A stretch of 64,000 nt of DNA from Patescibacteria group bacterium (GCA_018818205.1 JAHISJ010000023.1:173428-237427), one strand, 5' to 3'. Shown: positions 16,183-31,728, counted from the first letter of the stretch. Made by a program: numbers and translations. Notes: generated by a model not told the origin, from the letters alone.

Positions 16183-18162
16183 ATGAACGAAGGTTCTCAC
16201 TTCCTCGATCAAAAATATCGTGGATTACGTACCTCACAGCCCGTTGAGCATGAAAAAGCCAGAAAAAAAAGAAGCGGCGAAAAGGTTTCAGAAAAACCGG
16301 TAGAAAAGATTGCCGACTTTCTCTCCGTCCTTGAGCGTACCCACCTGGGACACAATGATAACCCCCTGGTCTTTGATCGCATCAAGAACTACTATCACAA
16401 AGAGCACGTCATTAAACCGGAGGACATCCCTCAGCACTACTGGAACCAGCAAGCCGGAATCATGATCAGAGAAGGTCGTGGGGCAGACATGGCGCAAGCG
16501 GGAGTAGAAAAAGAAACGTTTGTCGACAAAGATGGCAAGGAACACACTAATTATCATTTTCCCGAAGACTTAAGAGAACAAAAAATTGAAATCCTGCGAA
16601 ACAACCAAGAAAGAAGTCTTGATTTGTGGGTAAACTACTTAACCTCCGATGACGCGCTCTACCCGATGTGGGCTAAATACTGGGCTTTCCAATCCGTTTT
16701 GGGTATGGGCAAATTTGAAAAAATTCAGATTGAAGGAGAAGAAGATGAACAAAGGCTGGGGAAAGCCAGATTCCAAAAAAGAACCAAAGACACTGTCTCT
16801 TCCTTTCCCTATCTAAACCCGAGAGCTCTCGCCCAAACTATTGGGATCATGTCAGAAAGAATTGCGGAAAAACAAAAGCCCAAAAAAGAACGACAGCCTA
16901 TAAAAAATGTCAGTGCGCAGCTTGCAGACCCCGAGTTTCAAAAGCTTCTATCAACTGAGAGCTTCTCAAAACTTTACGCGCAGTTTCTTTTTGAGATGCC
17001 GGAATATTCTACGGAGGGACTCGAAGAAACGAGAGGAGAATGGAAAAAATATCCTCAAGGCTCTGATCCTAAAAAGCTTGTTGAATCTCTTGAAAGCTAT
17101 CCACTCGAATGGTGTACGGTGAATCTCGGTACCGCCGAAGAGCAGCTTAAGGGTGGTGATTTTTATGTCTACTACTCATATGATGAAGGCGGTAATTCAA
17201 AAATTCCGAGGATTGCTATTAGAATGCTTGGACAAAAGATAGCTGAACCTCCCAGAGGCATTGCTCCTGACCAAAGCATTGATCCCTATATTGGTCCCGT
17301 GCTAGAAAAGAAGATGGGAGCATTTGGACAAGAAGGAGAACTGTATAAGAAGAGAGCTGGAGACATGGAAATACTCACCCAGATAGAAGAGAAGACCAAA
17401 GCGGGTATTTTCAACCAGCAAGAAGACCAAAATTTTATAAACCATCTCAAGGTTCTCTACGAGATTGACCGGTCTATGCAAGGCTTTGGTTTTCGAAAAG
17501 ACCCAAGGATCAGGGAACTAAGAGAGCAAAGAAATCCCGAAGAAGATATGCTAATCATTTTTAACTGTACCCCAGAGGAAATTGCGAGAGCTTTCGAGCA
17601 AATCACCCCCGATACAAAAGCCTACATCGGGCCACTGACTAAAAATATCTTCCACAAACTGCCACAAGATCTCGAACATATCTACATTGAGTTTCCTGAA
17701 CAAAAAATTCGTAAAACAGAGATTGAAATTGGCGAAAAATCCAAGGAAGAGCTCATAAAGGAACTGCTGGAAGCGGACATTAAGACTCCGAAAGAAGCGC
17801 TAGATATGATTAAATGCTCAGACTTTAAAACCCTCAAAATCCGAAAAAACGTAACTCTGGTCAGATTGAGTGTCAAAAATTTGGGATTTGAAAAGAATAC
17901 TGCCATCGATGATATTTATCAAAGAGCACAAGAACTGGGCCTTACGCTAAGCCCAGCTGAAGTTGGACCGCATTATCGGCTTGAATACCGTGATCAGCCG
18001 ATAGGTGAGTGGGTAACTGTTGGCATGAAACAAATAGGTGGCTTGAGTGTTTTTAGTGTGGGGCGTTCCAGTGGCAGGGAGTGTTTGTATAACCAAGTTA
18101 CCAATAGTACGTGGCATCCGATTCGTGAGTTTGTGTTTTGCCTTTGCAAGAATGAATCTTAG
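16183..18162 (+). CDS. Large hypothetical protein (659 aa), compositionally distinct
   Basis: A long uninterrupted ORF with noticeably higher GC and C-ending codons (ccc, ccg, ggc, acc) than its neighbours. No recognisable catalytic motif. Confidence 0.5.
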   Translation: MNEGSHFLDQKYRGLRTSQPVEHEKARKKRSGEKVSEKPVEKIADFLSVLERTHLGHNDNPLVFDRIKNYYHKEHVIKPEDIPQHYWNQQAGIMIREGRGADMAQAGVEKETFVDKDGKEHTNYHFPEDLREQKIEILRNNQERSLDLWVNYLTSDDALYPMWAKYWAFQSVLGMGKFEKIQIEGEEDEQRLGKARFQKRTKDTVSSFPYLNPRALAQTIGIMSERIAEKQKPKKERQPIKNVSAQLADPEFQKLLSTESFSKLYAQFLFEMPEYSTEGLEETRGEWKKYPQGSDPKKLVESLESYPLEWCTVNLGTAEEQLKGGDFYVYYSYDEGGNSKIPRIAIRMLGQKIAEPPRGIAPDQSIDPYIGPVLEKKMGAFGQEGELYKKRAGDMEILTQIEEKTKAGIFNQQEDQNFINHLKVLYEIDRSMQGFGFRKDPRIRELREQRNPEEDMLIIFNCTPEEIARAFEQITPDTKAYIGPLTKNIFHKLPQDLEHIYIEFPEQKIRKTEIEIGEKSKEELIKELLEADIKTPKEALDMIKCSDFKTLKIRKNVTLVRLSVKNLGFEKNTAIDDIYQRAQELGLTLSPAEVGPHYRLEYRDQPIGEWVTVGMKQIGGLSVFSVGRSSGRECLYNQVTNSTWHPIREFVFCLCKNES

Positions 18163-19066: not shown

Positions 19067-19290
19067 GGGGCCCCCGAATAATTCCGATTGTTTGGGAAGG
19101 TGGAACACTATGGAAGTCGGAGCGAATCCCGAAGGTTTTACGTAGGGGTTCAGCTAGACTGGAATAGTAAGAATTGGGGCCCCCGAAAAGTTCCTACTTT
19201 TTGGGGAAGAGGAGGAACAATATGTAAGCTGGAGTGGGTTCCGAAGGCTTTGCGAAGGGACACACGTAAGCTGGAATATTGTTCCGACGT
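19067..19290 (+). repeat. Two tandem, degenerate ~110-bp direct repeats (plus an upstream partial copy from ~18990) abutting tRNA-Ser
   Basis: Copy A 19067-19176 and copy B 19177-19290 both begin GGGGCCCCCGAA and are ~70% identical. Both contain a tRNA T-arm-like block (GGAGCGAATCCCGAAGG / GGAGTGGGTTCCGAAGG) and end in GCTGGAATA. Confidence 0.6.
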
Positions 19291-19379
19291 GGAGAGATGG
19301 CAGAGTGGACTAATGCGCTGCTCTCGAAAAGCAGTTCTCGCTTTGTTGCGAGACGTGGGTTCGAATCCCACTCTCTCCG
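19291..19379 (+). tRNA. tRNA-Ser (anticodon CGA)
   Basis: Acceptor ggagaga / tctctcc, D-arm with GG, anticodon stem ctgct / agcag with loop ctCGAaa, a long variable arm ttctcgctttgttgcgagac, T-arm gtggg-ttcgaat-cccac, discriminator G. CCA is not encoded. Confidence 0.85.
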
Positions 19380-19456
19380 GATTTTTGTATGAGTTTTTTG
19401 GAAAACTTTATATGTGAGGTGGGCATGGTTCCCATATTCTAATAAAATGAACGATT

Positions 19457-20908
19457 ATGTTCGAACAATCATTCAAAAATATCGACGATATTCTACATAC
19501 CGATTCCGGATGCGGGACCGAGCTTGATTATGTTGAGCAAACTTCTTGGATTCTCTTTTTAAAATACCTCGATGATTTGGAAGAAACAAAGAAAACCGAG
19601 GCGGAACTTTCGGGGAAAAAATATGAATATATTTTATCGCCAAAATATCGATGGAACACTTGGGCTTGCCCAAAAAAAGATGATGGAAAGATTGACCATA
19701 ACAAAGCTCTTGGTGGGGATGATTTACGTGATTTTGTAAATAACAATCTTTTTCCTTATCTTAAAAAATTAAAAGCCGAGGATTCTGACACGATTGAATA
19801 CAAGATCGGTGAGATTTTTAGTGAACTAAAAAACAAAATTACAAGCGGTCACAAGTTGCGAGAAATTTTAACTATTGTTGATGGAATGCACTTTAGACTG
19901 TATGAAGAAAAGCACGAACTTTCTCATCTCTATGAAGCGAAAATTGCTAAAATGGGTAACGCTGGTCGAAACGGCGGTGAATACTATACACCTCGTCCGC
20001 TGATTAAGACTATCGTGAAGGTGGTTGACCCAAAAATCGGGGAAACCATTTATGATGGTGCCTGTGGAAGCGCCGGGTTTTTAGTTGAAGCATATAACTA
20101 TCTAACACAAAATCCGGAGAAACTGTCTTCGGGTCAAATGGAGACCTTGCAAAACAAAACCTTTTACGGAAAAGAAATCAAATCACTAGCTTACATCATC
20201 GGCATTATGAACATGATTTTGCATGGCATTGAAGCTCCAAACATCAGACACACAAACACGCTGGCCGAAAATATCAACGATATTCAAGAAAAAGATCGAT
20301 ATGATATTGTTTTGGCTAATCCGCCTTTTGGCGCCGGTATCGGCCGTGAAATACAACAAAATTTCCCCATCAAAACCGGAGAAACCGCTTTTCTTTTTCT
20401 CCAACATTTCATTAAGATTCTAAAAGCCGGTGGTAGAGCGGGAATAGTTATAAAAAATACTTTTTTATCCAATACCGACAACGCCTCCGTATCTTTACGC
20501 AAACTTCTTCTGGAAAATTGCAACCTCCACACCGTCCTTGATTTACCCGGGGGTGCTTTTCAGGGCGCAGGTGTAAAAACCGTCGTTCTCTTTTTTGAAA
20601 AAGGCGCGCCGACCAAGAAAGTTTGGTTTTATCAACTGAACCTTGATCGTAATCTTGGTAAAGGAAATCCTTTAAACGAAGCTGATTTGACGGAGTTTGT
20701 GAAATTGCAAAAAAGCAAAGCGGAAAGTGAGAATTCTTGGAGTGTGAGTGTGAAGGATATTGATCAAGAGACATTTGATTTGTCTGTGAAGAATCCTAAT
20801 AAGAAGAATGAGGAGGTGTTGCGGGAGCCGGAGGAGATTTTGAAGGAGATGAGGGATTTGGATGAAGAGAGTAAAAAAATACTAGATTCTATGCAAGAAA
20901 AATTATGA
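19457..20908 (+). CDS. hsdM: Type I restriction-modification system, DNA methyltransferase subunit M
   Basis: HsdM N-terminal domain, AdoMet motif I DGACGSAGFLV, catalytic motif IV IVLANPPFG. Length 483 aa. Confidence 0.9.
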   Translation: MFEQSFKNIDDILHTDSGCGTELDYVEQTSWILFLKYLDDLEETKKTEAELSGKKYEYILSPKYRWNTWACPKKDDGKIDHNKALGGDDLRDFVNNNLFPYLKKLKAEDSDTIEYKIGEIFSELKNKITSGHKLREILTIVDGMHFRLYEEKHELSHLYEAKIAKMGNAGRNGGEYYTPRPLIKTIVKVVDPKIGETIYDGACGSAGFLVEAYNYLTQNPEKLSSGQMETLQNKTFYGKEIKSLAYIIGIMNMILHGIEAPNIRHTNTLAENINDIQEKDRYDIVLANPPFGAGIGREIQQNFPIKTGETAFLFLQHFIKILKAGGRAGIVIKNTFLSNTDNASVSLRKLLLENCNLHTVLDLPGGAFQGAGVKTVVLFFEKGAPTKKVWFYQLNLDRNLGKGNPLNEADLTEFVKLQKSKAESENSWSVSVKDIDQETFDLSVKNPNKKNEEVLREPEEILKEMRDLDEESKKILDSMQEKL

Positions 20909-21786
20909 TATCTGAAGAGCAAATACAGAATTGGTCACGAGCACTAAGTGAAATAGAGAACGAAAAATGTATTTCTACAGTGGCTACAATCAAAAATATT
21001 TTGCAAGAAAAGTTTGGAGATTCAGTAGATATTTTTCTTCAGGGCTCATATAGGAATAGTACAAATGTGAGACAAGATAGCGACGTAGATATCATTGTTT
21101 GTTACAATAAGGCATATTTTCCTGATCTGTCTGGACTTTCAGATCAAGAAATAGAACGTCATAATTCAATACTAATACCTTCTGAATACTCATTTTCACA
21201 ATTTAAGAGTGATGTTGAAGATTTAATGAGAAAAAAATTCCCACTTCAAACAGAAAGAAAAAATAAGTGTGTATTTGTAAAAGGAGATGTACATAGAGTA
21301 AATGCAGATATTGTACCTTGTTTTATTTTAAAGCGTTTTCGCCCTCCTTATTATGTTGAAGCCGAGGGAATTCAATTTTTTTCTGACAAAGAAGAAGAAA
21401 TAAAAAGTTTTCCAAGACAACACTACGAAAACGGAGCGGACAAAAACGAAGCAACTGATGCGTCGTTTAAATCGGTAGTTAGAATTTTAAAAAATTCTAG
21501 AAATATGCTTATTGATAAGAATGAAATTGACGAAAAACTTATGCCATCTTTTTTCTTAGAATGCTTAATATGGAATGTTCCAAATATCCAATTTAACACT
21601 TTTTCAGAAAAGAGATGTGTAAATAGCATTTTGAAAGTTTTGTGGGCAGACATGGATAGGATAGAGGTTGTGGAATCTTACACCGAAATCAGTAATTTAA
21701 TGCTTTTATTTCAAAAGCAAAAGGCACAAACCCCTGAAAGTGTTAAACTTTTTTTAAGTGAAGCTTATAACTTAATGAATTCATGA
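20905..21786 (+). CDS. Polymerase-beta-superfamily nucleotidyltransferase, cGAS/DncV-like (CD-NTase / SMODS-like) candidate
   Basis: Start ATG overlaps the hsdM stop (ATGA). Core GSYRNSTNVRQDSDVDIIV (GS ... DxD), a third acidic residue in GDVHRVNADIVPCF ~75 aa later, and a ~150-aa helical C-terminal half. Total 293 aa. This layout resembles CD-NTases rather than 100-aa MNT antitoxins. Confidence 0.55.
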   Translation: MISEEQIQNWSRALSEIENEKCISTVATIKNILQEKFGDSVDIFLQGSYRNSTNVRQDSDVDIIVCYNKAYFPDLSGLSDQEIERHNSILIPSEYSFSQFKSDVEDLMRKKFPLQTERKNKCVFVKGDVHRVNADIVPCFILKRFRPPYYVEAEGIQFFSDKEEEIKSFPRQHYENGADKNEATDASFKSVVRILKNSRNMLIDKNEIDEKLMPSFFLECLIWNVPNIQFNTFSEKRCVNSILKVLWADMDRIEVVESYTEISNLMLLFQKQKAQTPESVKLFLSEAYNLMNS

Positions 21787-21795
21787 AAAATTTCA

Positions 21796-22251
21796 ATGCA
21801 AAATGATATTTTATTAAAGGCTCTTGATGAGCGATACAAATCTATCCACATAATCCGTGAAAGGATTCAGACTGTTGTGCTATGGATTTTGGGGCTTTTA
21901 ATTACTGGGTCAGCATGGGTTTACCAGTCAGATGTTTATTTTGATTTACTTGGTATGTTGTCATTGTTTCTTGTGATTATTTGTATCTGGATATCTATTT
22001 GGAAATTTTATTTTTATGATCTAGAAAAGGGTTTTAATAGTCAAAGAAAAATTGCTGCTAAAATTGAAGAAGCCCTTGGTTTTTATAAGAAAAAACATTT
22101 TTCAGAGAGTGAAGAATCGATGTATCCAATTGAATGGAAAAATTCTGGGAAAAAAAATTGCGAGGGAAAATTTATGAGAAATACTTACTACTTGATTGCA
22201 CTGGGTTTCATTCTATCAATGCTTGCAATTTTTTCCCACACATGTATTTAG
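21796..22251 (+). CDS. Small membrane protein with N-terminal TM hairpin (SLATT-like candidate effector)
   Basis: 151 aa. Adjacent helices VVLWILGLLITGSAWVY and LLGMLSLFLVIICIWISIW, then a charged helical segment and a C-terminal hydrophobic helix YYLIALGFILSMLAIF. It starts 10 nt after the NTase stop and ends 5 nt before hsdS. Confidence 0.45.
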   Translation: MQNDILLKALDERYKSIHIIRERIQTVVLWILGLLITGSAWVYQSDVYFDLLGMLSLFLVIICIWISIWKFYFYDLEKGFNSQRKIAAKIEEALGFYKKKHFSESEESMYPIEWKNSGKKNCEGKFMRNTYYLIALGFILSMLAIFSHTCI

Positions 22252-22256
22252 ATATT

Positions 22257-23324
22257 ATGACTAAAAGAATTCAAAAAAATAACTGGCAAACAAAAAAACT
22301 TGGCGATATTTTAAAATTAGAATATGGTAAACCTTTGCCAAAAACTGAAAGATCTTCCGATGGGAAATATCCTGTTTATGGTGCAAATGGGATTAAGGAT
22401 TTTTCCAACAAGTTTTATTTTGATAAGCCAAGCATTGTTGTTGGCCGAAAAGGATCAGCAGGAAAGCTTCATTTAGTAGAGAAAAATTTTTGGCCATTGG
22501 ACGTGACTTATTTTGTAACTTTTGATGATAAAAAATATGATCTCAATTTTCTTTTTCATCTTTTGAGTGATCTTGAACTATCGAAATTAGCAAAAGGTGT
22601 AAAACCCGGAATAAATCGTAATGATGTTTACTCGAGAGAGGTCAATATTCCACCTCTCCCCGAACAACGCCGCATCGTAAAAATTCTAGATGAAATTTTT
22701 GAGAAAACAGCGAAAGCAAAAGAAAATTCTGAAAAAAATCTGCAAAATGCCAAAGAACTTTTTGAATCGTATTTGCAGAGTGTTTTTGAGAATCCAGGGG
22801 AAGATTGGAAAAAGAAAAGATTTGATAAAATTTGTGTTCTTCAAAGAGGTTTCGATTTGCCAACTCGTTTAAGAAATATAGGAAAATTTCCGCTTGTTAG
22901 CTCTAATGGAATTACTGACCAAATTGACCTCTGGAAAGTAAAAGCCCCTGGTGTTGTTACTGGAAGAAGTGGAACAATTGGCAATGTTCACTATATTGAA
23001 AAAGATTTTTGGCCTCTAAATACAGCACTTTACATCAAAGAGTTTTATGGGAATAATGAAAGGTTTATTTATTATTTATTGAAGCAATTTGATTTAAGTA
23101 AATACAGTTCAGGGGCAGGTGTCCCAACTTTAAATCGAAATAATGTTCATGATGAAATGGTTTTATATCCCAGATCGTTAAACGAGCAAAAATACATAGT
23201 CAAAAAACTTGATGGTCTTTCAGCCAAAACTAAAAAACTAGAAACAATTTACCAAAAAAAGTTATCAGACTTAGAAGAACTGAAAAAATCAGTTCTAAAA
23301 CGTGCCTTCAGTGGCAAGTTATAA
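22257..23324 (+). CDS. hsdS: Type I restriction-modification system, specificity subunit S
   Basis: Two target-recognition-domain repeats (…VYGANGIKDFSNKFYFDKPSIVVGRKGSAGK… and …LVSSNGITDQIDLWKVKAPGVVTGRSGTIGN…). Each is followed by a conserved coiled-coil spacer (LPEQRRIVKILDEIF / LNEQKYIVKKLDGL). ATG at 22257 chosen; the longer track ORF from 22134 would overlap the upstream gene. Confidence 0.8.
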   Translation: MTKRIQKNNWQTKKLGDILKLEYGKPLPKTERSSDGKYPVYGANGIKDFSNKFYFDKPSIVVGRKGSAGKLHLVEKNFWPLDVTYFVTFDDKKYDLNFLFHLLSDLELSKLAKGVKPGINRNDVYSREVNIPPLPEQRRIVKILDEIFEKTAKAKENSEKNLQNAKELFESYLQSVFENPGEDWKKKRFDKICVLQRGFDLPTRLRNIGKFPLVSSNGITDQIDLWKVKAPGVVTGRSGTIGNVHYIEKDFWPLNTALYIKEFYGNNERFIYYLLKQFDLSKYSSGAGVPTLNRNNVHDEMVLYPRSLNEQKYIVKKLDGLSAKTKKLETIYQKKLSDLEELKKSVLKRAFSGKL

Positions 23325-23336
23325 CAAACTAAATTT

Positions 23337-25664
23337 ATGAACGAATCAGAAACAAGAGCCGAATATATTGACCCAAAGCTTAAACAAGCTGGTTGGGGTG
23401 AGGTTGAGGGGTCGAAAATAATGCGGGAATATCGGATTACCGAAGGAAGAATTCAAGCCGGCGGTACAAGGTCCAAACCGGAGATTGCGGATTATGTTTT
23501 GGTTTATAAGAATCGTAAAATTGGAATAATTGAAGCAAAAGCTGTAGATCTGGAAGTTGGTGAGGGGGTAGCGCAAGCCAAGGCATACGCCGAGAAAATG
23601 GATATAGATTATTCTTATGCGACAAACGGCAAAGAGATTTATCAGATTTCCATGAAAACAGGTAAGGAAAAAAACGTGAGTAGCTTTCCCACTCCAGATG
23701 AACTATGGAATAAAACTTACGCCGACTGGAATGAATGGAAGGAAAAATTTGATGGAGTTTTGTTTGAAGATGGAGGAACGGGGAAAAGACCCAGGTATTA
23801 TCAGGAAATCGCGACAAATAATGTTTTGGAATCGATTACTGAAGAAAAAAAGAGAATCTTATTAACATTAGCAACCGGAACCGGAAAAACGTTTATTGCT
23901 TTTCAAATTGTTTGGAAACTTTTTCAAACCCGTTGGAATCTGAATCGTGATGGGGCCAGGAGGCCAAGAGTTTTGTTTTTAGCTGACAGGAATATTTTAG
24001 CTGATCAAGCTATGAATAATTTTGCGGCTTTTAAAGAAGATGAAAAAGTGAGAATCAACCCGCTTGATATCAGAAAAAAGGGTGGAGTACCTATGACCGG
24101 CAGTATCTTTTTTACCATCTTTCAAACTTTCATGAGCGGGCAAAACGGCATGCCATATTTTGGTGATTATCCACCTGATTTCTTTGATTTGATTATCATT
24201 GATGAATGTCACAGAGGAGGGGCAAATGATGAAAGTAATTGGCGTGGAATTTTAGAATATTTTTCTCCGGCGGTACAACTTGGACTTACCGCAACACCAA
24301 AGCGAAAAAATAATGTCGACACGTATAGATACTTTGGAGAACCGGTTTACATTTATTCACTCAAGGAAGGAATCAACGACGGGTTTTTAACACCTTTTAA
24401 AATCAAAAGAATCAAAACAACGTTAGATGATTATGTTTACACTTCCGATGATCAGATTATTGAAGGAGAAGTTGAAGAAGGAAAAATTTACGAAGAGCCG
24501 GATTTTAATAGAATTATTGAAATTAAGGAACGTGAAGCAAAGAGAGCGCGGGTATTAATGAATGAAATAAATCAAAATGAAAAAACTATTATCTTTTGCG
24601 CGACACAAGATCATGCCTTGGCGGTTCGTGACTTGGTAAGTCAAATGAAAAATAGTAAGGACCCATTTTATTGCGTTCGGGTGACGGCAAATGATGGGGC
24701 AAGAGGAGATCAGTCCTTACGTGATTTTCAAGATAATGAAAAAATAATTCCAACAATTCTCACAACTTCTCAAAAACTTTCCACAGGTGTAGACGCGCGC
24801 AATATTAGAAATATCGTTTTAATGCGTCCAATCAATTCGATCATAGAGTTTAAACAGATTATTGGACGTGGGACGAGACTTTTTGACGGTAAAGAATATT
24901 TTACGATCTATGATTTTGTTGATGCATACAAACATTTTTCTGACCCCGAATGGGATGGTGAGCCGATAGACGAGACAACCGAAAAGGAACCGCGTGAGAT
25001 GAAAGAACAGAAGGAAATAAAAGAGTCAAACGCTTCACTCGAAAAGCCGGAGGAACCGAAGAAGAAACTGAAAATTAAGTTAAGCGATGGCAAAGTGAGA
25101 GAGATAAAACACATGATTTCCACTTCTTTCTGGGGTGCTGATGGCAAACCGATTTCCATTCAAGAGTTCATGGATAATATGTTTGGTACCATGCCCGAGT
25201 TTTTTAAAAGTGAAGAAGAGCTCAGAAAAATTTGGTCAAATCCTAAAACGCGTAAAGCTTTTTTAGAGAAAATTGCCGAAAAAGGTTTTGGCAAAGATGA
25301 GCTAGAAACTCTGCAAAAAATGATTGATGCTGAGCAAAGTGACTTGTTTGATGTATTGTTGTATATCTCGTTCTTAACCAAGCCAATTTCAAGGACTCAA
25401 AGAGTAAACCAATCAAAAAATAAGATGTTTAAAGGTCTAGATGATAAACAAAAAGAGTTTCTGGATTTTGTTTTATTAAAATATGAAGAAAAAGGAGTTG
25501 AAGAACTTGATGAAGATAAATTACCGGTTTTGTTGAATTTGAAATATCACGCTATAGCAAATGCAGAAGAATCTCTTGGCGATGTAGCGCGAATTCGGTC
25601 TATGTTTTTTTCCTCTCAGAAAAATTTGTACTCTGAGGTAGAAAAGGAATATACATATAAATAA
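23337..25664 (+). CDS. hsdR: Type I restriction enzyme, endonuclease/translocase subunit R (compact, 775 aa)
   Basis: N-terminal Mrr/PD-(D/E)xK-like nuclease region (ADYVLVY...IGIIEAKA). SF2 helicase motif I LATGTGKTF and motif II LIIIDECHRG, with later helicase motifs (TATPKR, ILTTSQKLSTGVDA, QIIGRGTR). Confidence 0.85.
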   Translation: MNESETRAEYIDPKLKQAGWGEVEGSKIMREYRITEGRIQAGGTRSKPEIADYVLVYKNRKIGIIEAKAVDLEVGEGVAQAKAYAEKMDIDYSYATNGKEIYQISMKTGKEKNVSSFPTPDELWNKTYADWNEWKEKFDGVLFEDGGTGKRPRYYQEIATNNVLESITEEKKRILLTLATGTGKTFIAFQIVWKLFQTRWNLNRDGARRPRVLFLADRNILADQAMNNFAAFKEDEKVRINPLDIRKKGGVPMTGSIFFTIFQTFMSGQNGMPYFGDYPPDFFDLIIIDECHRGGANDESNWRGILEYFSPAVQLGLTATPKRKNNVDTYRYFGEPVYIYSLKEGINDGFLTPFKIKRIKTTLDDYVYTSDDQIIEGEVEEGKIYEEPDFNRIIEIKEREAKRARVLMNEINQNEKTIIFCATQDHALAVRDLVSQMKNSKDPFYCVRVTANDGARGDQSLRDFQDNEKIIPTILTTSQKLSTGVDARNIRNIVLMRPINSIIEFKQIIGRGTRLFDGKEYFTIYDFVDAYKHFSDPEWDGEPIDETTEKEPREMKEQKEIKESNASLEKPEEPKKKLKIKLSDGKVREIKHMISTSFWGADGKPISIQEFMDNMFGTMPEFFKSEEELRKIWSNPKTRKAFLEKIAEKGFGKDELETLQKMIDAEQSDLFDVLLYISFLTKPISRTQRVNQSKNKMFKGLDDKQKEFLDFVLLKYEEKGVEELDEDKLPVLLNLKYHAIANAEESLGDVARIRSMFFSSQKNLYSEVEKEYTYK

Positions 25665-25715
25665 AACGATGATTGAGATTTTTATTAAGAAAATTGAGGA
25701 GAGGGTGGAGAAAGC

Positions 25716-27245
25716 ATGGAAGTGAAACTGGATTTATTAAAAAAAATCAAAAATGCATATGACCCGTTTAAGGAATGTGTAACTATGGTTGATTGTGTTG
25801 ATTCTCTTTATGCTATTTGGGCTTATTACTCATTCCTTTTGCAGAAAAAAGAGGTTCCAGATATAGAATACATTAGGGAAATTGAACTAAATAAATCTAA
25901 TGAGTATAACTTTAGGTATGTTTCTCCTTGGGAGCTTGAGCTACTTGCAAGAGAGATACTAGTTAGCTCAATAGAAAGTAAACATTTCGATATACCATCA
26001 TTCAGGAGCGCAAAATATTTTGTCAACGCCTTGAATAATCTGAAAAGCATTGGAGGTGTATTTGAAATAGAAAAAGTAAGGCGTTTAACGTATGTACAAT
26101 TTCCTTGGCAGGGTGAAAATCATGTAATTGATGGGGTAAATATTCTTGTTCGATACTATAACTTGTTTAATCATGTAACTTTCGAGAAAAAAATTAGAGA
26201 GGAGTATGGTCTTTCGCTGAAAAAGCTATTTTTTGTTGGGTTTACATTGCTTTCTCATTTTCAGAATAATTTTGAACTTCGGTTACCCTATAAAAATAAA
26301 GATATCCCTGATTTAAAAGATCAAGAAATTGATGCTTTCCTTAACAAATTTTCACTTGCATTGCCTGAAATTAGAAAAAGAGTTGAAAAAGAACAAGCTG
26401 TTGATGAAAATTTCTTATGTCGATCTATATGTTTAAAAGCATTGCCTCTCATTAAACTAGAAAGAAGTATTGTTTGTCCAATCCCTGATTTTCTCCTTTG
26501 GTCTTTTACAAAAAATCTTTATTATACGATTTACGATCAAAACAAAGATAGCAAAATAATTGGCGAAAATTTTGAAAAATACATAAAAAAAGTCATTAAA
26601 GCCGAGATTGATATAGTAGACTTATTTCCTAAGAAAAAATATGGCATAGAACAAAAAGAAACTTCGGACTACATTATTAAATATAGTAAAAGCCTTCTTT
26701 TTATTGAAGCAAAATTAAAAAGAATTCCATTTGAGGCTAAAACTTGTTTATTAGATGAAACAGCTTTTAACGAAGAACTTGTAAAATTTTCTGAATCAAT
26801 CGTTCAGACATACAAGGTAATTAATGATTTTATAAACAATGAATTTTCATTCTCAAACAAAAAACAAATAGTTAGGTATGAAGATGATTTTTTAATTTAC
26901 CCAATTATTGTAACATTAGAAGACTCATATATTTGGGGCAGTGATTCAAAATTGCTTGAAGCAGAAGTCTGTAAAAGATTAGAAGAGAATCAAATTCAAT
27001 TGAATTTTGTAAGCCGTTTCCCATATTTGTTGTGTTCGGCTAGAGAGTTTGAAAAATTTATACAGTTAATTAAGAATATTGACCCAGATAGTTTTTTTAA
27101 AGTAAGAAATAGAAATGAAGACACAAAAAGGAGCACTGTTAATAACCTAATGTATAATTTTTTTAATAAAGATATGGAAAAAAATAAAAAGGTTTTATTG
27201 AAAGAAGAGTTCGTTAAAATTTTCCCCAAAGGTCTAATAATATAA
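25716..27245 (+). CDS. Hypothetical protein (509 aa), very AT-rich, possible C-terminal PD-(D/E)xK nuclease-like motif
   Basis: An uninterrupted ORF despite ~28% GC. Possible D...ExK arrangement SDYIIKYSKSLLFIEAKLKR. It sits immediately downstream of hsdR in the same orientation. Confidence 0.45.
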   Translation: MEVKLDLLKKIKNAYDPFKECVTMVDCVDSLYAIWAYYSFLLQKKEVPDIEYIREIELNKSNEYNFRYVSPWELELLAREILVSSIESKHFDIPSFRSAKYFVNALNNLKSIGGVFEIEKVRRLTYVQFPWQGENHVIDGVNILVRYYNLFNHVTFEKKIREEYGLSLKKLFFVGFTLLSHFQNNFELRLPYKNKDIPDLKDQEIDAFLNKFSLALPEIRKRVEKEQAVDENFLCRSICLKALPLIKLERSIVCPIPDFLLWSFTKNLYYTIYDQNKDSKIIGENFEKYIKKVIKAEIDIVDLFPKKKYGIEQKETSDYIIKYSKSLLFIEAKLKRIPFEAKTCLLDETAFNEELVKFSESIVQTYKVINDFINNEFSFSNKKQIVRYEDDFLIYPIIVTLEDSYIWGSDSKLLEAEVCKRLEENQIQLNFVSRFPYLLCSAREFEKFIQLIKNIDPDSFFKVRNRNEDTKRSTVNNLMYNFFNKDMEKNKKVLLKEEFVKIFPKGLII

Positions 27246-27570
27246 TTTTAGAACAATCTCTGATTCTCACTATCACTTGATGAAAAAAAAATGTCTAGAG
27301 AGTGATAAAATCTCAAAGTCAGATAATGAATGTGATTACTATATGTAGTGGAATGCACGTGATGAGTATGAGAAGTTAGAAGTGGAAATATCCAACTAAC
27401 AGAGAAAAATACACAAAAGAAAAATCAGACTATATCAATTCAATAACAAAGAAAGCCAAAAGTGGAAACGAGTAATGATCTTTCACAATATAAAATATAT
27501 AGCCAAAAATGAATTTGTATGCTATAATAAGTATGCTTAATTAAGTGTTTCTAAAAAACTAACAAAAAAA

Positions 27571-28122
27571 ATGGAAACAAAAACATCAACAGTTAGAGCA
27601 TTGCTCATAATCCGAGCACTAGTGCTTGTGGCCTTTGGCCTTATTGCGCTCTTTTATCCGGGTATTACCGTTTTGGGCCTTGTATACTTCTTTGGTATCA
27701 TGGCCATAATTAGTGGAATCCTTGCCTTTGTTCATCTCATTGCTGAGAAAAACTGGCTCTATCTGCTACTCGGTATCTTTGAAATTTTTATAGGAATTTT
27801 GGTCATGGCATATCCGGGAATCACTGCTGCAATAGTTATCTGGCTGTTTATTATCTGGCTTCTTGCTATGGGCCTTGTATTGTTTATTAATGGTATTACA
27901 TTGCTAAAAGGAATTGCGCGAGTGTTAATGATTATTTCTGGGTTACTTGTTGCACTTCTAGCCATGCTTCTTCTCCTACAACCTATCTGGATGACCGGAG
28001 TAGATATCCTTTGGTTCATTGGTATCTTTAGCGCAATCTCAGGCGTTGTTCTCTTCTTTACTGGTATTTTTGCAAAAAAAGAAACAATTCGTGAGGTAGC
28101 TCGTGAAGAGTCAGAAGTGTAA
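27571..28122 (+). CDS. HdeD/DUF308-like small multi-pass membrane protein
   Basis: 183 aa composed of repeated short TM hairpins (GLIALFYPGITVLGLVYFFGIMAIISGI ... IFIGILVMAYPGITAAIVIWLFIIW ...). Confidence 0.5.
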   Translation: METKTSTVRALLIIRALVLVAFGLIALFYPGITVLGLVYFFGIMAIISGILAFVHLIAEKNWLYLLLGIFEIFIGILVMAYPGITAAIVIWLFIIWLLAMGLVLFINGITLLKGIARVLMIISGLLVALLAMLLLLQPIWMTGVDILWFIGIFSAISGVVLFFTGIFAKKETIREVAREESEV

Positions 28123-29295
28123 ATGCACAAGACACCTCTCTCCTTTCACCTCATGGCTAAACCAACTGGAGCTGACTGCAACTTACGTTGCGATTATTGT
28201 TATTTTCTTCCAAAGAAAAAACTGTCTCCAAAGACAGAACGAATGTCAGACAAGATCTTGGAAGAGTACGTTAAGCAGTTAATAGAATCACATAACGTAC
28301 CTTCTGTTACTGTTGCATGGCAAGGAGGAGAACCAACGTTAATGGGTCTTGAGTTCTACAAGCGTGCAACAAAGCTTGTAGAAAAATACAAAAAGTCTGG
28401 AACGCATATAGAGCACACCATTCAAACCAACGGAACACTCCTTGATGATGAATGGTGTGCTTTTTTTAGAGAAAATAACTATTTGGTGGGTATAAGCCTT
28501 GATGGCCCACCTGAATTTCATGATACGTTTCGTAAAAACAAGGTTGGCGATTCAGTGTATGATCAAGTCATGAAGGGGATAGCGCTTCTACAAAAACATA
28601 CTGTCGAGTTTAACGTACTTACTACGGTTAATGCAGCTAATGTTAAACATCCTCTAAAACTATACTCTTTTCTCAGAGATGACTTAAAAATAAAATTCAT
28701 CCATTTTATTCCTGTAGTCGAGACGGGAAAGGACCGTCAAAATGTCAAAGAGTTTTCGCTAAAACCAGGTGAGTATGGAGATTTTCTGAATAGTATTTTT
28801 GACGAATGGATACAGAAAGACGTAGGGGAGGTCTTTGTCCAAATGTTTGACACTGCTTTAGCCTCATGGGCAGGAGCACCACAAACTGCATGCGTTTTTG
28901 CACCAACATGCGGTACTGCGCTCATTATGATGCCAGATGGTGCAGTTTATTCATGTGATCATTTTGCTGATTCCAACCACTGTCTTGGCACTATTTCAAA
29001 AACACACCTATCAGAATTGGTCAGCTCAGAAAAACAAAGACTCTTTGGAGAGTCAAAGCAAACGACGTTGCCGGAAGAATGCAAAGAATGTGCCTATCTT
29101 TTTGCCTGTCAGGGCGGGTGTCCAAAGAATAGATTTGTACATACGAAGAATAACTCAGAGAGTAAAAACTATTTGTGCAGCGACTATAAAGCTTTTTTTG
29201 AGCATATTGACACACCTATGCAAAAAATGACGTCACTTCTCAGACAAGGACGCGCACCAGCAGAAATAATGGAAAATATACATACTAATAAATGA
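28123..29295 (+). CDS. Anaerobic sulfatase-maturating enzyme (radical SAM/SPASM, anSME)
   Basis: Radical SAM CxxxCxxC in GADCNLRCDYCYF at the N-terminus. A C-terminal Cys-rich SPASM region (CVFAPTCGTA...CDHF...CKECAYLFACQGGCPKN). Directly upstream of a sulfatase gene. Confidence 0.8.
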   Translation: MHKTPLSFHLMAKPTGADCNLRCDYCYFLPKKKLSPKTERMSDKILEEYVKQLIESHNVPSVTVAWQGGEPTLMGLEFYKRATKLVEKYKKSGTHIEHTIQTNGTLLDDEWCAFFRENNYLVGISLDGPPEFHDTFRKNKVGDSVYDQVMKGIALLQKHTVEFNVLTTVNAANVKHPLKLYSFLRDDLKIKFIHFIPVVETGKDRQNVKEFSLKPGEYGDFLNSIFDEWIQKDVGEVFVQMFDTALASWAGAPQTACVFAPTCGTALIMMPDGAVYSCDHFADSNHCLGTISKTHLSELVSSEKQRLFGESKQTTLPEECKECAYLFACQGGCPKNRFVHTKNNSESKNYLCSDYKAFFEHIDTPMQKMTSLLRQGRAPAEIMENIHTNK

Positions 29296-29373
29296 ATATT
29301 TGCTATATTTATATATAACATCATTAACTACTCTATGCATATCTGAGGATTATAAACACTAAATAAAAAACGC

Positions 29374-31728
29374 ATGCCAAAAAAGAAATTCAAAGGAACT
29401 ATCAATGTTGATGTTAGAGATTCTGTGCCAGATTGGGGTCCGTATGAACAACCAAGTTCAAAAAAAGGCTCTCCAAATATCTTGTACATCGTCTTGGATG
29501 ATGTAGGCTTTTCTGCTTTGTCTTGCTACGGAGGGCTTATTGATACACCGAATATAGACAAGCTGGCAAAGAACGGATTGCAGTATACACAGTGGCATAC
29601 GACAGCACTGTGCTCACCAACACGCTCAAGTTTACTCACTGGAAGGAATCATACCACCAACGGTATGGCATGTATTGCTGAGGCTACTACGGGGTTTCCT
29701 GGCTCAAATGGTCACATCCCTTTTGAATCAGCTCTTATTCCAGAGGTGCTGGTTGAAAAAGGATACAACACCTATATGCTTGGTAAATGGCATCTATGTC
29801 CATCGGATGAAATGAACCTTGCTTCCACAAAGCGTAATTGGCCACTGGGAAGAGGATTTGAGAGATATTATGGCTTTTTAGGAGGAGAAACCAATCAATA
29901 TTATCCTGATCTTATTTATGATAATCACCCAGTAGCACAACCCAAGCTCCCTAAAGATGGGTATCATTTTACGGAGGATATTACCAACAAGGCAATGGAG
30001 TTTATTGGTGATTCTAAGGTTATAGCTCCTGATAAGCCCTTTTTTATGTATTTTTGTCCAGGTGCTGCACATGCACCACACCAGGTCCCAAAAAAATGGA
30101 TAGAAAAATACAAAGGTGCATTTGATATGGGATATGAAAAATATCGAGAAGTTATTTTAGCACGTCAAAAGAAAATGGGGGTTTTGCCTAAAAATACAAA
30201 ACTACCTCCAATCAACCCAATCGGCACTCCCGGGAAAACTAAGAATGAAGAAGGTAAACCATTTCCAGAGCTCGACTACACAAGACCGTGGAAATCACTT
30301 TCTAATGGTGAGAAGAAACTTTTTGCTCGCATGGCTGAAGTCTATGCTGGCTTTTTATCTCACACAGATCACCATATTGGACGTTTGATGGAATTCTTAA
30401 AGAAAACGAAGCAGTTTGACAATACCATTACTGTGCTCGTTTCAGATAATGGTGCTAGTGGTGAGGGCGGCCCCAATGGTTCAGTCAATGAGAACAAATT
30501 CTTTAATGGTATCCCTGATGACCTTGAGGAAAACCTTGAAAAACTTGATGACCTAGGAAGTCCAAAGACCTACAATCACTACACAAATGGGTGGGCTATG
30601 GCTTTTAACACCCCATTTAAAATGTTCAAACGATACGCTTGGAACGGAGGAATCAGTGATGCGTGTATCTTCCATTGGCCAAAAGGAATTAAGAAAAAAG
30701 GAAAGAGAGATCAATACCACCATGCAATTGATGTTGTCCCAACTATATACGAATGTTTGGGTATTGAAATGCCCGATGAAGTTAAGGGCTATACGCAAGT
30801 TCCTATTGAGGGGACTAGCATGAAGTATTCTTTTGATGCTCCAAAAGAGGAAACACATAGAGAAACACAGTTTTACTCCATGCTTGGCAGCAGAGGGATC
30901 TACCATAAAGGGCTAAAGGCAGTAACAACTCACCCATGCATAGCAGGGTGGGGACATTTTGAAAATGACATATGGGAACTTTACAATCTTGAAAAAGATA
31001 GGTCTGAAGTAAATAACCTTGCAAATAAGCATCCAAAGGAGCTCGAGAAACTTAAAATGCTCTGGTATTCTGAAGCAGGAAAATACAACGCTTTACCACT
31101 TGATGATCGTACTGCATTGGAAATCATGCTTACACCTAGGCCAGAGATGGTAAAATCGAGAAATCGATACATTTATTACCCCAACATGGCTGAAGTAGTT
31201 GAATTTGCTTCAGTGAATATAAGAAATCGTTCTTATGTTATTGGTTCAGAAATAATGGTTGATTCAAAAAACCCTTCTGGCATAATCTTCTCTATGGGAA
31301 GCAAATTTGGCGGTCACACACTCTATGTAAAAAATAGAAGATTAAAATACGTCTATAATTTTGTTGGCTCATTAGAGCAAGTAGTTGAGTCTAATCTAGA
31401 TATCCCAGAAGGAAATGTTATTTTAGGTGCATCATTTAGAAAAAAATCAGAAAAGCCCAAAGGCACAGCACATGGCACACTTTCTCTCTATATAAATAAA
31501 AAGAAGGTTGGTGAAGGTGATATAAAAACCCAACCGGGTTCTTTTGGTCTTTCCGGAGGCGGGGTAATAGTAGGAAGATGTGACAAAGAATCTGTCACCG
31601 ATGACTACGAAGGCGAGAGACCATGGACATTTACTGGAGGCACCATCAGATACGTCGCATTTGATGTAAGTGGAAAGCCCTTTGTAGATCTTCAAAAAGA
31701 AGCTGAGCTGCTTATGAAAAGACAGTAG
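29374..31728 (+). CDS. Arylsulfatase-family (formylglycine-dependent) sulfatase with C-terminal extension
   Basis: Sulfatase signature CSPTRSSLLTGR (C-x-P-x-R), a metal-binding LYIVLDDVGFS block, and the downstream GKWHLC motif. 784 aa. Confidence 0.85.
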   Translation: MPKKKFKGTINVDVRDSVPDWGPYEQPSSKKGSPNILYIVLDDVGFSALSCYGGLIDTPNIDKLAKNGLQYTQWHTTALCSPTRSSLLTGRNHTTNGMACIAEATTGFPGSNGHIPFESALIPEVLVEKGYNTYMLGKWHLCPSDEMNLASTKRNWPLGRGFERYYGFLGGETNQYYPDLIYDNHPVAQPKLPKDGYHFTEDITNKAMEFIGDSKVIAPDKPFFMYFCPGAAHAPHQVPKKWIEKYKGAFDMGYEKYREVILARQKKMGVLPKNTKLPPINPIGTPGKTKNEEGKPFPELDYTRPWKSLSNGEKKLFARMAEVYAGFLSHTDHHIGRLMEFLKKTKQFDNTITVLVSDNGASGEGGPNGSVNENKFFNGIPDDLEENLEKLDDLGSPKTYNHYTNGWAMAFNTPFKMFKRYAWNGGISDACIFHWPKGIKKKGKRDQYHHAIDVVPTIYECLGIEMPDEVKGYTQVPIEGTSMKYSFDAPKEETHRETQFYSMLGSRGIYHKGLKAVTTHPCIAGWGHFENDIWELYNLEKDRSEVNNLANKHPKELEKLKMLWYSEAGKYNALPLDDRTALEIMLTPRPEMVKSRNRYIYYPNMAEVVEFASVNIRNRSYVIGSEIMVDSKNPSGIIFSMGSKFGGHTLYVKNRRLKYVYNFVGSLEQVVESNLDIPEGNVILGASFRKKSEKPKGTAHGTLSLYINKKKVGEGDIKTQPGSFGLSGGGVIVGRCDKESVTDDYEGERPWTFTGGTIRYVAFDVSGKPFVDLQKEAELLMKRQ

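Follow-up and report, generated by a model that had tools for sequence, protein, structure and literature searches.

The window analyzed here, the whole 64,000-nt stretch of DNA, carries a run of plus-strand genes between a tRNA-Ser(CGA) gene (19290-19380, plus strand; detected by ARAGORN and Rfam), which lies 76 nt 5′ of hsdM, and a 325-bp intergenic spacer (27246-27570). The type I restriction-modification (R-M) genes hsdM (19457-20908), hsdS (ending at 23324), and hsdR (23337-25664) were identified with Pfam, PADLOC, and NCBIfam models and from translations. Nested in this operon, between hsdM and hsdS, is a two-gene segment (20905-22251) consisting of a CD-NTase-like nucleotidyltransferase (NTase) gene (20905-21786), the start of which overlaps the hsdM stop, and a gene for a 151-aa membrane protein (21796-22251) with about three hydrophobic segments in its translation. 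The layout resembles that of prrC, which is nested in EcoprrI. The NTase was evident from its translation and from Pfam, PADLOC (Cyclase, E = 6e-79), and NCBIfam, where it scored 215 bits against the "DS2_2 anti-phage nucleotidyltransferase" model, below the cut-off of 350; the 151-aa protein is likely its effector. The mechanically called hsdS open reading frame (ORF) begins at 22134 and shares 118 nt with the 151-aa ORF. However, the Pfam and PADLOC matches start only near residue 48, and 6 nt past the stop of the 151-aa ORF there is an in-frame ATG (22257; MTKRIQKNNW...), which is the likelier start of hsdS. Downstream of hsdR is the gene under study, ORF509 (25716-27245, plus strand), the sole long ORF of its stretch. 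Thus, the 8 kb from the tRNA-Ser gene to the spacer contain three candidate immune modules: the type I R-M system, the CD-NTase-like module, and ORF509. Past the spacer are genes for a DUF308/HdeD-like protein, a radical-SAM/SPASM enzyme, and a sulfatase. The latter two (28123-31728, plus strand; the sulfatase is 784 aa long) resemble an anaerobic sulfatase-maturase/sulfatase pair, something not expected of a genome labeled Patescibacteria. On the other side of the tRNA gene, a 659-aa ORF (16183-18162, plus strand) flanked by a ClpB-like gene and the gene for a GT2 glycosyltransferase had no Pfam or NCBIfam match.

ORF509 is a real gene of 509 codons, as the earlier note had maintained despite its AT-richness. 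It is preceded by a strong, purine-rich ribosome-binding site, GAGGAGAGGGTGGAG (25696-25710, plus strand), read directly from the sequence, and its ATG is 5 nt past the end of this site. The NCBI record (MBU1119174.1, locus tag KKH43_04810, Patescibacteria group bacterium) names the product "hypothetical protein." The gene has the same orientation as the R-M operon, and the reported spacing of about 50 nt from hsdR was accurate: the hsdR stop at 25664 is followed by a 51-nt gap. No terminator was found between the two genes, and ORF509 is probably cotranscribed with hsdR. Its GC content is 0.288 (0.233 at third codon positions) compared to 0.374 for hsdR, 0.399 for the DUF308/HdeD gene, and 0.382 for the window. 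The gene is therefore AT-richer than its flanking genes, as had been claimed, but it is not unique in this respect, since three more island genes have a low GC content (NTase, 0.314; 151-aa ORF, 0.316; hsdS, 0.324). A composition rich in K, N, I, and F residues may be part of the cause.

The spacer after ORF509 had been described as AT-rich and repeat containing and as a possible island boundary. It is indeed AT-rich (27.4% GC), but the repeats amount to short, chance-level matches and one array of a 14-nt unit in 2.1 copies. The tRNA-Ser gene is a possible attachment point of an island; no repeat of 10 nt or longer was shared between the tRNA region (19250-19470) and the spacer region (27200-27620). 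The window contained no serine recombinase and no second copy of the family, and an integrase was likewise not found at the island. Since neither repeats nor a copy of the tRNA 3′ end were found, the spacer is no more than a possible island boundary. The spacer also showed no terminator-like hairpin (z = 0.45), and it contains a promoter-like sequence, TAGCCA-17-(TG)TATAAT (27500-27528), upstream of the DUF308 gene.

The most informative part of ORF509 is its C-terminal half, where a possible PD-(D/E)xK motif had been noticed and where structure prediction and conservation among homologues had been suggested as checks. Both bore the suggestion out. The AlphaFold model computed from an 89-sequence alignment had a pLDDT of 93.5, superseding an AlphaFold2 model from a 3-sequence alignment only (pLDDT 49.6), and its closest structural matches are restriction-endonuclease folds. 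The predicted nuclease domain, of the FokI/BspD6I type, spans approximately residues 276 to 455 (26541-27080, plus strand) and has the alpha-beta-beta-beta-alpha-beta core that the PD-(D/E)xK superfamily requires. In the model, its elements are a helix at 278-297 (with G283, F286, and Y289), a strand at 319-322 (next to D318), a strand at 326-333 (E331 and K333), a helix at 349-373 (Q364 and Y366), and a strand at 393-400 (T400, followed by E402). The catalytic motif D318...E331-A-K333 (26667-26714, plus strand) lies in the peptide SDYIIKYSKSLLFIEAKLKR, with the spacing D-x12-E-x-K; the codons are at 26667-26669 for D318, 26706-26708 for E331, and 26712-26714 for K333. All three residues were invariant in 89 out of 89 homologues with 22 to 31% identity and in 43 out of 43 members of another homologue set. 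The earlier note had found no other motif recognizable, which was not correct, since both halves of the protein contain many further invariant or near-invariant positions. In the C-terminal half, these are G283/F286/Y289, the K335-R336 pair just after the catalytic motif (26718-26723), Q364/Y366, and T400/E402/W404.

The top structural matches of the model were Upx, N.BspD6I, and FokI, and McrC and type IIS cleavage domains were also among the neighbors. Sequence-level signals were weak and went only to other PD-(D/E)xK families. For instance, HMMER aligned the catalytic motif to the GxxFExYV...D...ECK nuclease motif of Can2 (7bdv), whereas the nuclease-domain profile gave no significant match to PDB sequences, Upx included. 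A viral fold search (BFVD) with the model was negative. The invariant triad, the model, and the weak matches together strongly support a predicted restriction-endonuclease fold for the C-terminal domain, and ORF509 would on this basis be a Mg2+-dependent nuclease with one active site per chain. Since there would be a single active site per chain, a double-strand cut would need a dimer, and the FokI-like domain would probably work in this form.

The N-terminal domain, approximately residues 1 to 275 (25716-26540, plus strand), is mainly alpha-helical according to the secondary structure of the model. Its conserved motifs are W72-E-L-E..A-R-E80, R123..Q128-F-P-W-Q132, R146-Y, and C254-P-x-P, and its mean column conservation (0.425) compares with 0.454 for the nuclease domain. 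The least conserved part is a C-terminal helical tail, approximately residues 456 to 509 (27081-27245, plus strand; conservation 0.315), with helices at 457-502 in the model. A profile of the N-terminal domain had no significant match among PDB sequences, and no DNA-reading or sensor fold was recognized in it. Presumably, it is a sensor or nucleic-acid-binding domain.

ORF509 itself had no family model or match in Pfam, PADLOC, NCBIfam, PHROGs, or PDB sequences, and it had been called an orphan. This did not hold. A seed profile was built from ORF509 and two relatives (27 to 28% identity) that came from a k-mer-indexed protein search, and an exhaustive HMMER profile search was run against 1.84 billion cluster representatives (50%-identity clusters). 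It found 2,784 clusters at E ≤ 1e-3, 1,460 at E ≤ 1e-10, and 509 at E ≤ 1e-30. The best 150 matches were nearly all full length, at 480 to 530 aa. The 10 clusters that were examined were singletons at 90% identity and either had no name or were named "hypothetical protein." When 89 members were compared with PADLOC (2023 copy), no convincing defense model was hit; the best match (E ~7e-5) covered the nuclease core only. A literature search for family accessions found no mention of those searched.

For genomic context, one genome from each GTDB species was scanned with a pattern; 101 loci were confirmed, and 80 of them were kept. They are spread over 22 Patescibacteria, 27 Alphaproteobacteria, 17 Beta- or Gammaproteobacteria, 6 Nitrospirota, and 4 Bacteroidota, with one apiece in Nitrospinota, Verrucomicrobiota, Chloroflexota, and a Woesearchaeota archaeon. 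A tblastn search detected the family on 30 plasmids, including 13 conjugative ones, with all annotated copies named "hypothetical protein"; one homologue from a Pseudomonas plasmid is WP_226046667.1. The family was absent from 50,697 phage records searched by tblastn, and in IMG/VR, a relative was present on just 2 of 2.9 million contigs. Low GC content is a general feature as well: in 66 of the 67 loci of at least 8 kb, the GC content of the family gene was lower than that of the remaining locus (mean difference, -9.8 points; Wilcoxon P = 1.2e-12), in hosts with flanking GC ranging from 27% to 73%. The "foreign composition" noted for ORF509 is therefore a family-wide trait. Fragmented copies, frameshifted or truncated, occur in loci L011 (9995-11506), L020 (9962-11188 and 3451-4086), and L061 (8296-9747), consistent with a dispensable accessory gene. 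The family is thus a large, unnamed group of horizontally mobile two-domain proteins of about 500 aa, and with its conserved N-terminal domain, it appears to be uncataloged in Pfam, NCBIfam, PADLOC (2023), PHROGs, and the searchable literature.

Neighboring genes were called with a simple greedy ORF caller in 81 loci, and the 1,353 products were clustered by all-versus-all BLAST. No conserved partner gene beside the family emerged from this clustering. Three apparent paralogues in it, in L033, L060, and L080, turned out to be P-type ATPases and were discarded. Some trends were apparent among the genes within two positions of the homologue (150 genes in 63 loci). The commonest Pfam families were N6_N4_Mtase and MethyltransfD12 (4 each), followed by S24/LexA, phage integrase, and ResIII (3 each) and by zeta toxin, DUF4062, transposases, resolvase/recombinase, and RNA ligase (2 each), and components of type II and type III R-M systems were detected among these 150 genes by PADLOC. 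As a control, 145 genes located 7 to 10 positions away on either side were examined; they were mostly housekeeping (AAA/DnaX, HAD hydrolases, and histidine kinases), and none of the above Pfam families was in their top 25. These are small counts from home-made ORF calls and top-25 family summaries.

Individual loci show the same mixture of restriction, other defense-like, and mobile genes. One example is a single co-oriented run of an Eco57I-type methylase, a T5orf172/ResIII protein, a DUF4268 protein, and the homologue. In another locus, a DUF2779/Cas4-like nuclease is upstream and a DUF4238 gene, reported to be a single-gene defense, is downstream of the homologue, with housekeeping genes on either side. 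ResIII-TnsA-like proteins, a LexA-fused methylase, and AAA_15/AAA_21 ATPases were other neighbors. In L092 (6976-9536) and L093 (1511-4071), the end of a tyrosine integrase gene is the start of the homologue (shared bases 8001 and 2536, respectively), which implies translational coupling, and 4 kb downstream, L092 also encodes a NikA-like protein and a relaxase. One locus places the homologue with an rve transposase and an integrase and another with ParA, a capsid fragment, and a small terminase subunit. A large serine recombinase gene was found 1 to 9 genes away in 10 loci (L002, L007, L015, L017, L021, L023, L025, L033, L038, and L060; for example, L002:5414-6916 and L033:8609-9970, both on the minus strand). 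Nine of these loci are from Patescibacteria, and L038 is from Pseudomonadales. The recombinases matched YokA, the TP901-1 integrase, and a conjugative-transposon recombinase in the PDB, which suggests a common type of integrative element carrying the gene in these small genomes. Contexts that are not defense-like were also seen, namely, a locus with an acetyltransferase and a peptidase and a Pseudomonas plasmid region with ssb and recT upstream.

Comparison with known systems places ORF509 near several nucleases. The closest solved structure is that of Upx, a single-gene defense protein (Gao et al. 2020) with a cryo-EM structure, 9wuf (PMC13099982, PMC13601566). Upx is about 1,200 to 1,270 aa long and has three domains, and its N-terminal sensor of about 500 aa (and second nuclease) binds phage terminase (PMC13099982). 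The large sensor region binds the ATPase domain of the terminase, and the C-terminal ExK glutamate is required for defense and toxicity (PMC13601566). The core of its C-terminal domain has been described as FokI-like (PMC13099982), and a divergent C-terminal FokI-like PD-(D/E)xK nuclease is what ORF509 shares with Upx according to the model. The likeness is structural only (TM score 0.33, 13 to 17% identity): family profiles run against PDB sequences did not match 9wuf at E ≤ 10, and no Upx model was among the PADLOC matches of the 89 members. ORF509, with 509 aa and one helical domain, is less than half the size of Upx and lacks its N-terminal sensor. It was therefore rejected as a member of the Upx family on size, on the missing sensor, and on the lack of sequence-level similarity. 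Type IIS enzymes, to which the FokI, N.BspD6I, and R.BspD6I cleavage domains belong, are paired with a cognate methylase, and their sequence-specific recognition domains differ from enzyme to enzyme, whereas the ORF509 family has no methylase within two genes at most loci and an N-terminal domain that is conserved across phyla. A type II restriction endonuclease with an obligatory adjacent methylase was likewise rejected, the sole methylase here being HsdM of the type I system. The likeness to Can2, Card1, and Cdn1 is limited to the nuclease domain; ORF509 has no CARF domain, an unrelated helical N-terminal half, and no association with type III CRISPR. Finally, Mrr adjoins hsdR in the immigration control region of Escherichia coli K-12, and like ORF509, it is a solitary PD-(D/E)xK nuclease beside hsdR without a methylase of its own. 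However, the ORF509 family has no sequence or profile similarity to the Mrr families.

Two local roles of ORF509 were considered. The shared orientation with hsdR, the 51-nt distance, and the lack of an intervening terminator would fit an accessory subunit of the neighboring type I enzyme or a regulator of it. The earlier note had expected genes of this kind to hitch-hike next to R-M systems and had proposed looking for recurrent adjacency in other genomes. When the HsdM, HsdS, and HsdR proteins of the window were used as phmmer queries, a type I system was found in only 1 of the 80 other loci (L067), at a distance of 4 to 7 genes, and the family is alone in most loci. Hitch-hiking next to R-M is therefore not a family trait, and a role as an accessory to the type I enzyme, largely refuted by this lack of co-occurrence, is very improbable. 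The second role is that of the nuclease effector of the NTase encoded 4 kb upstream, in a CBASS-like pair comparable to those with NucC or Cap4. However, the NTase has the 151-aa membrane protein directly adjacent as its likely effector, no homologue of the NTase was present in the 81 other family loci, and no SAVED or CARF domain was detected in ORF509 or the 89 members. We rejected this pairing on co-occurrence and give it hardly any credence. The absence of a conserved partner, the single type I system in 80 other loci, and the lack of NTase homologues together argue that ORF509 is functionally autonomous.

Two further explanations accept an autonomous nuclease but assign it another task. 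One is that it serves its own mobile element, in establishment, recombination, exclusion of competitors, or as an addiction toxin. The frequent proximity, at times direct adjacency, of integrases, serine recombinases, transposases, and relaxases speaks for this, as do the 30 plasmids with the gene, 13 being conjugative, and the position after ssb and recT on the Pseudomonas plasmid. There is, however, no fixed linkage to one recombinase or element type, many copies, including the one in the window, have no recombinase nearby, and no conserved small antitoxin-like partner was found in the neighbor clustering. Moreover, cargo next to integrases very often consists of defense genes, so this context does not discriminate between the two possibilities. 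We consider service to the element plausible but rather unlikely. The other explanation is a type IV (modification-dependent) restriction enzyme, as with Mrr: the N-terminal domain would recognize a base modification or some other non-self feature of DNA chemistry, and the FokI-like domain would then cleave close by. ORF509 is a stand-alone nuclease with no obligatory methylase, most of the 63 loci being methylase free within two genes of the homologue; it directly follows hsdR here, its structural matches include McrC and type IIS cleavage domains, and a conserved N-terminal domain suits recognition of a generic feature better than that of a specific sequence. On the other hand, no known reader of modified bases, such as SRA, YTH/EVE, Mrr-N winged helix, or DUF3427, was detected, either by Pfam in the 89 members or by the PDB profile search with the N-terminal domain. 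We consider a type IV enzyme plausible but unlikely.

We favor, with a probability of roughly 0.55, a reading in which ORF509 is a stand-alone, mobile, two-domain DNA nuclease that is gated by a sensor and forms the third module of a small defense cluster near the tRNA-Ser gene. It is probably used in defense against phages or other mobile DNA. The candidate defense role proposed in the earlier note is thus upheld circumstantially, by the R-M and NTase cluster in the window, by the methylase, mobile, and toxin genes near homologues, and by the foreign GC content, but no PADLOC model backs it. In the proposed mechanism, the N-terminal domain would bind or sense a generic cue of the invader, which could be some feature of its nucleic acid or a foreign protein that is conserved. 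By analogy with Upx, the cue-bound domain might then license the FokI-like nuclease, and the outcome would be restriction of the foreign DNA or abortive infection. More tentatively, the family could be a new and widespread single-gene immune system, a compact structural relative of Upx, in which the N-terminal motifs (WELE..ARE, HRQFPWQ, RY, and CPxP) recognize either a DNA structure or a protein of phage or plasmid origin and the nuclease then brings about abortive infection or degradation of the invader DNA. In this view, the family would be notably frequent in Patescibacteria, riding on serine-recombinase islands in their reduced genomes.

A solitary PD-(D/E)xK nuclease in a defense island is a well-known idea, and because such candidates are common, the finding is solid rather than surprising; what appears to be new is the specific family with its conserved N-terminal domain. 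If the favored reading is correct, a family of at least ~2,800 clusters would join the single-protein nuclease defenses, and this family, as a small and tractable relative of Upx, could be used to study how a noncatalytic domain gates nuclease activity of the FokI type. Knowledge of immunity in Patescibacteria (CPR) is sparse and would be extended as well. The way in which the family came to light has a practical side as well. The word-indexed protein search returned only ORF509 and its two relatives, with the single sequence and equally with the 89-member profile. Apparent orphan status can be an artifact of k-mer-prefiltered searches on AT-rich genes, and orphan calls for such genes from an indexed search should be distrusted.
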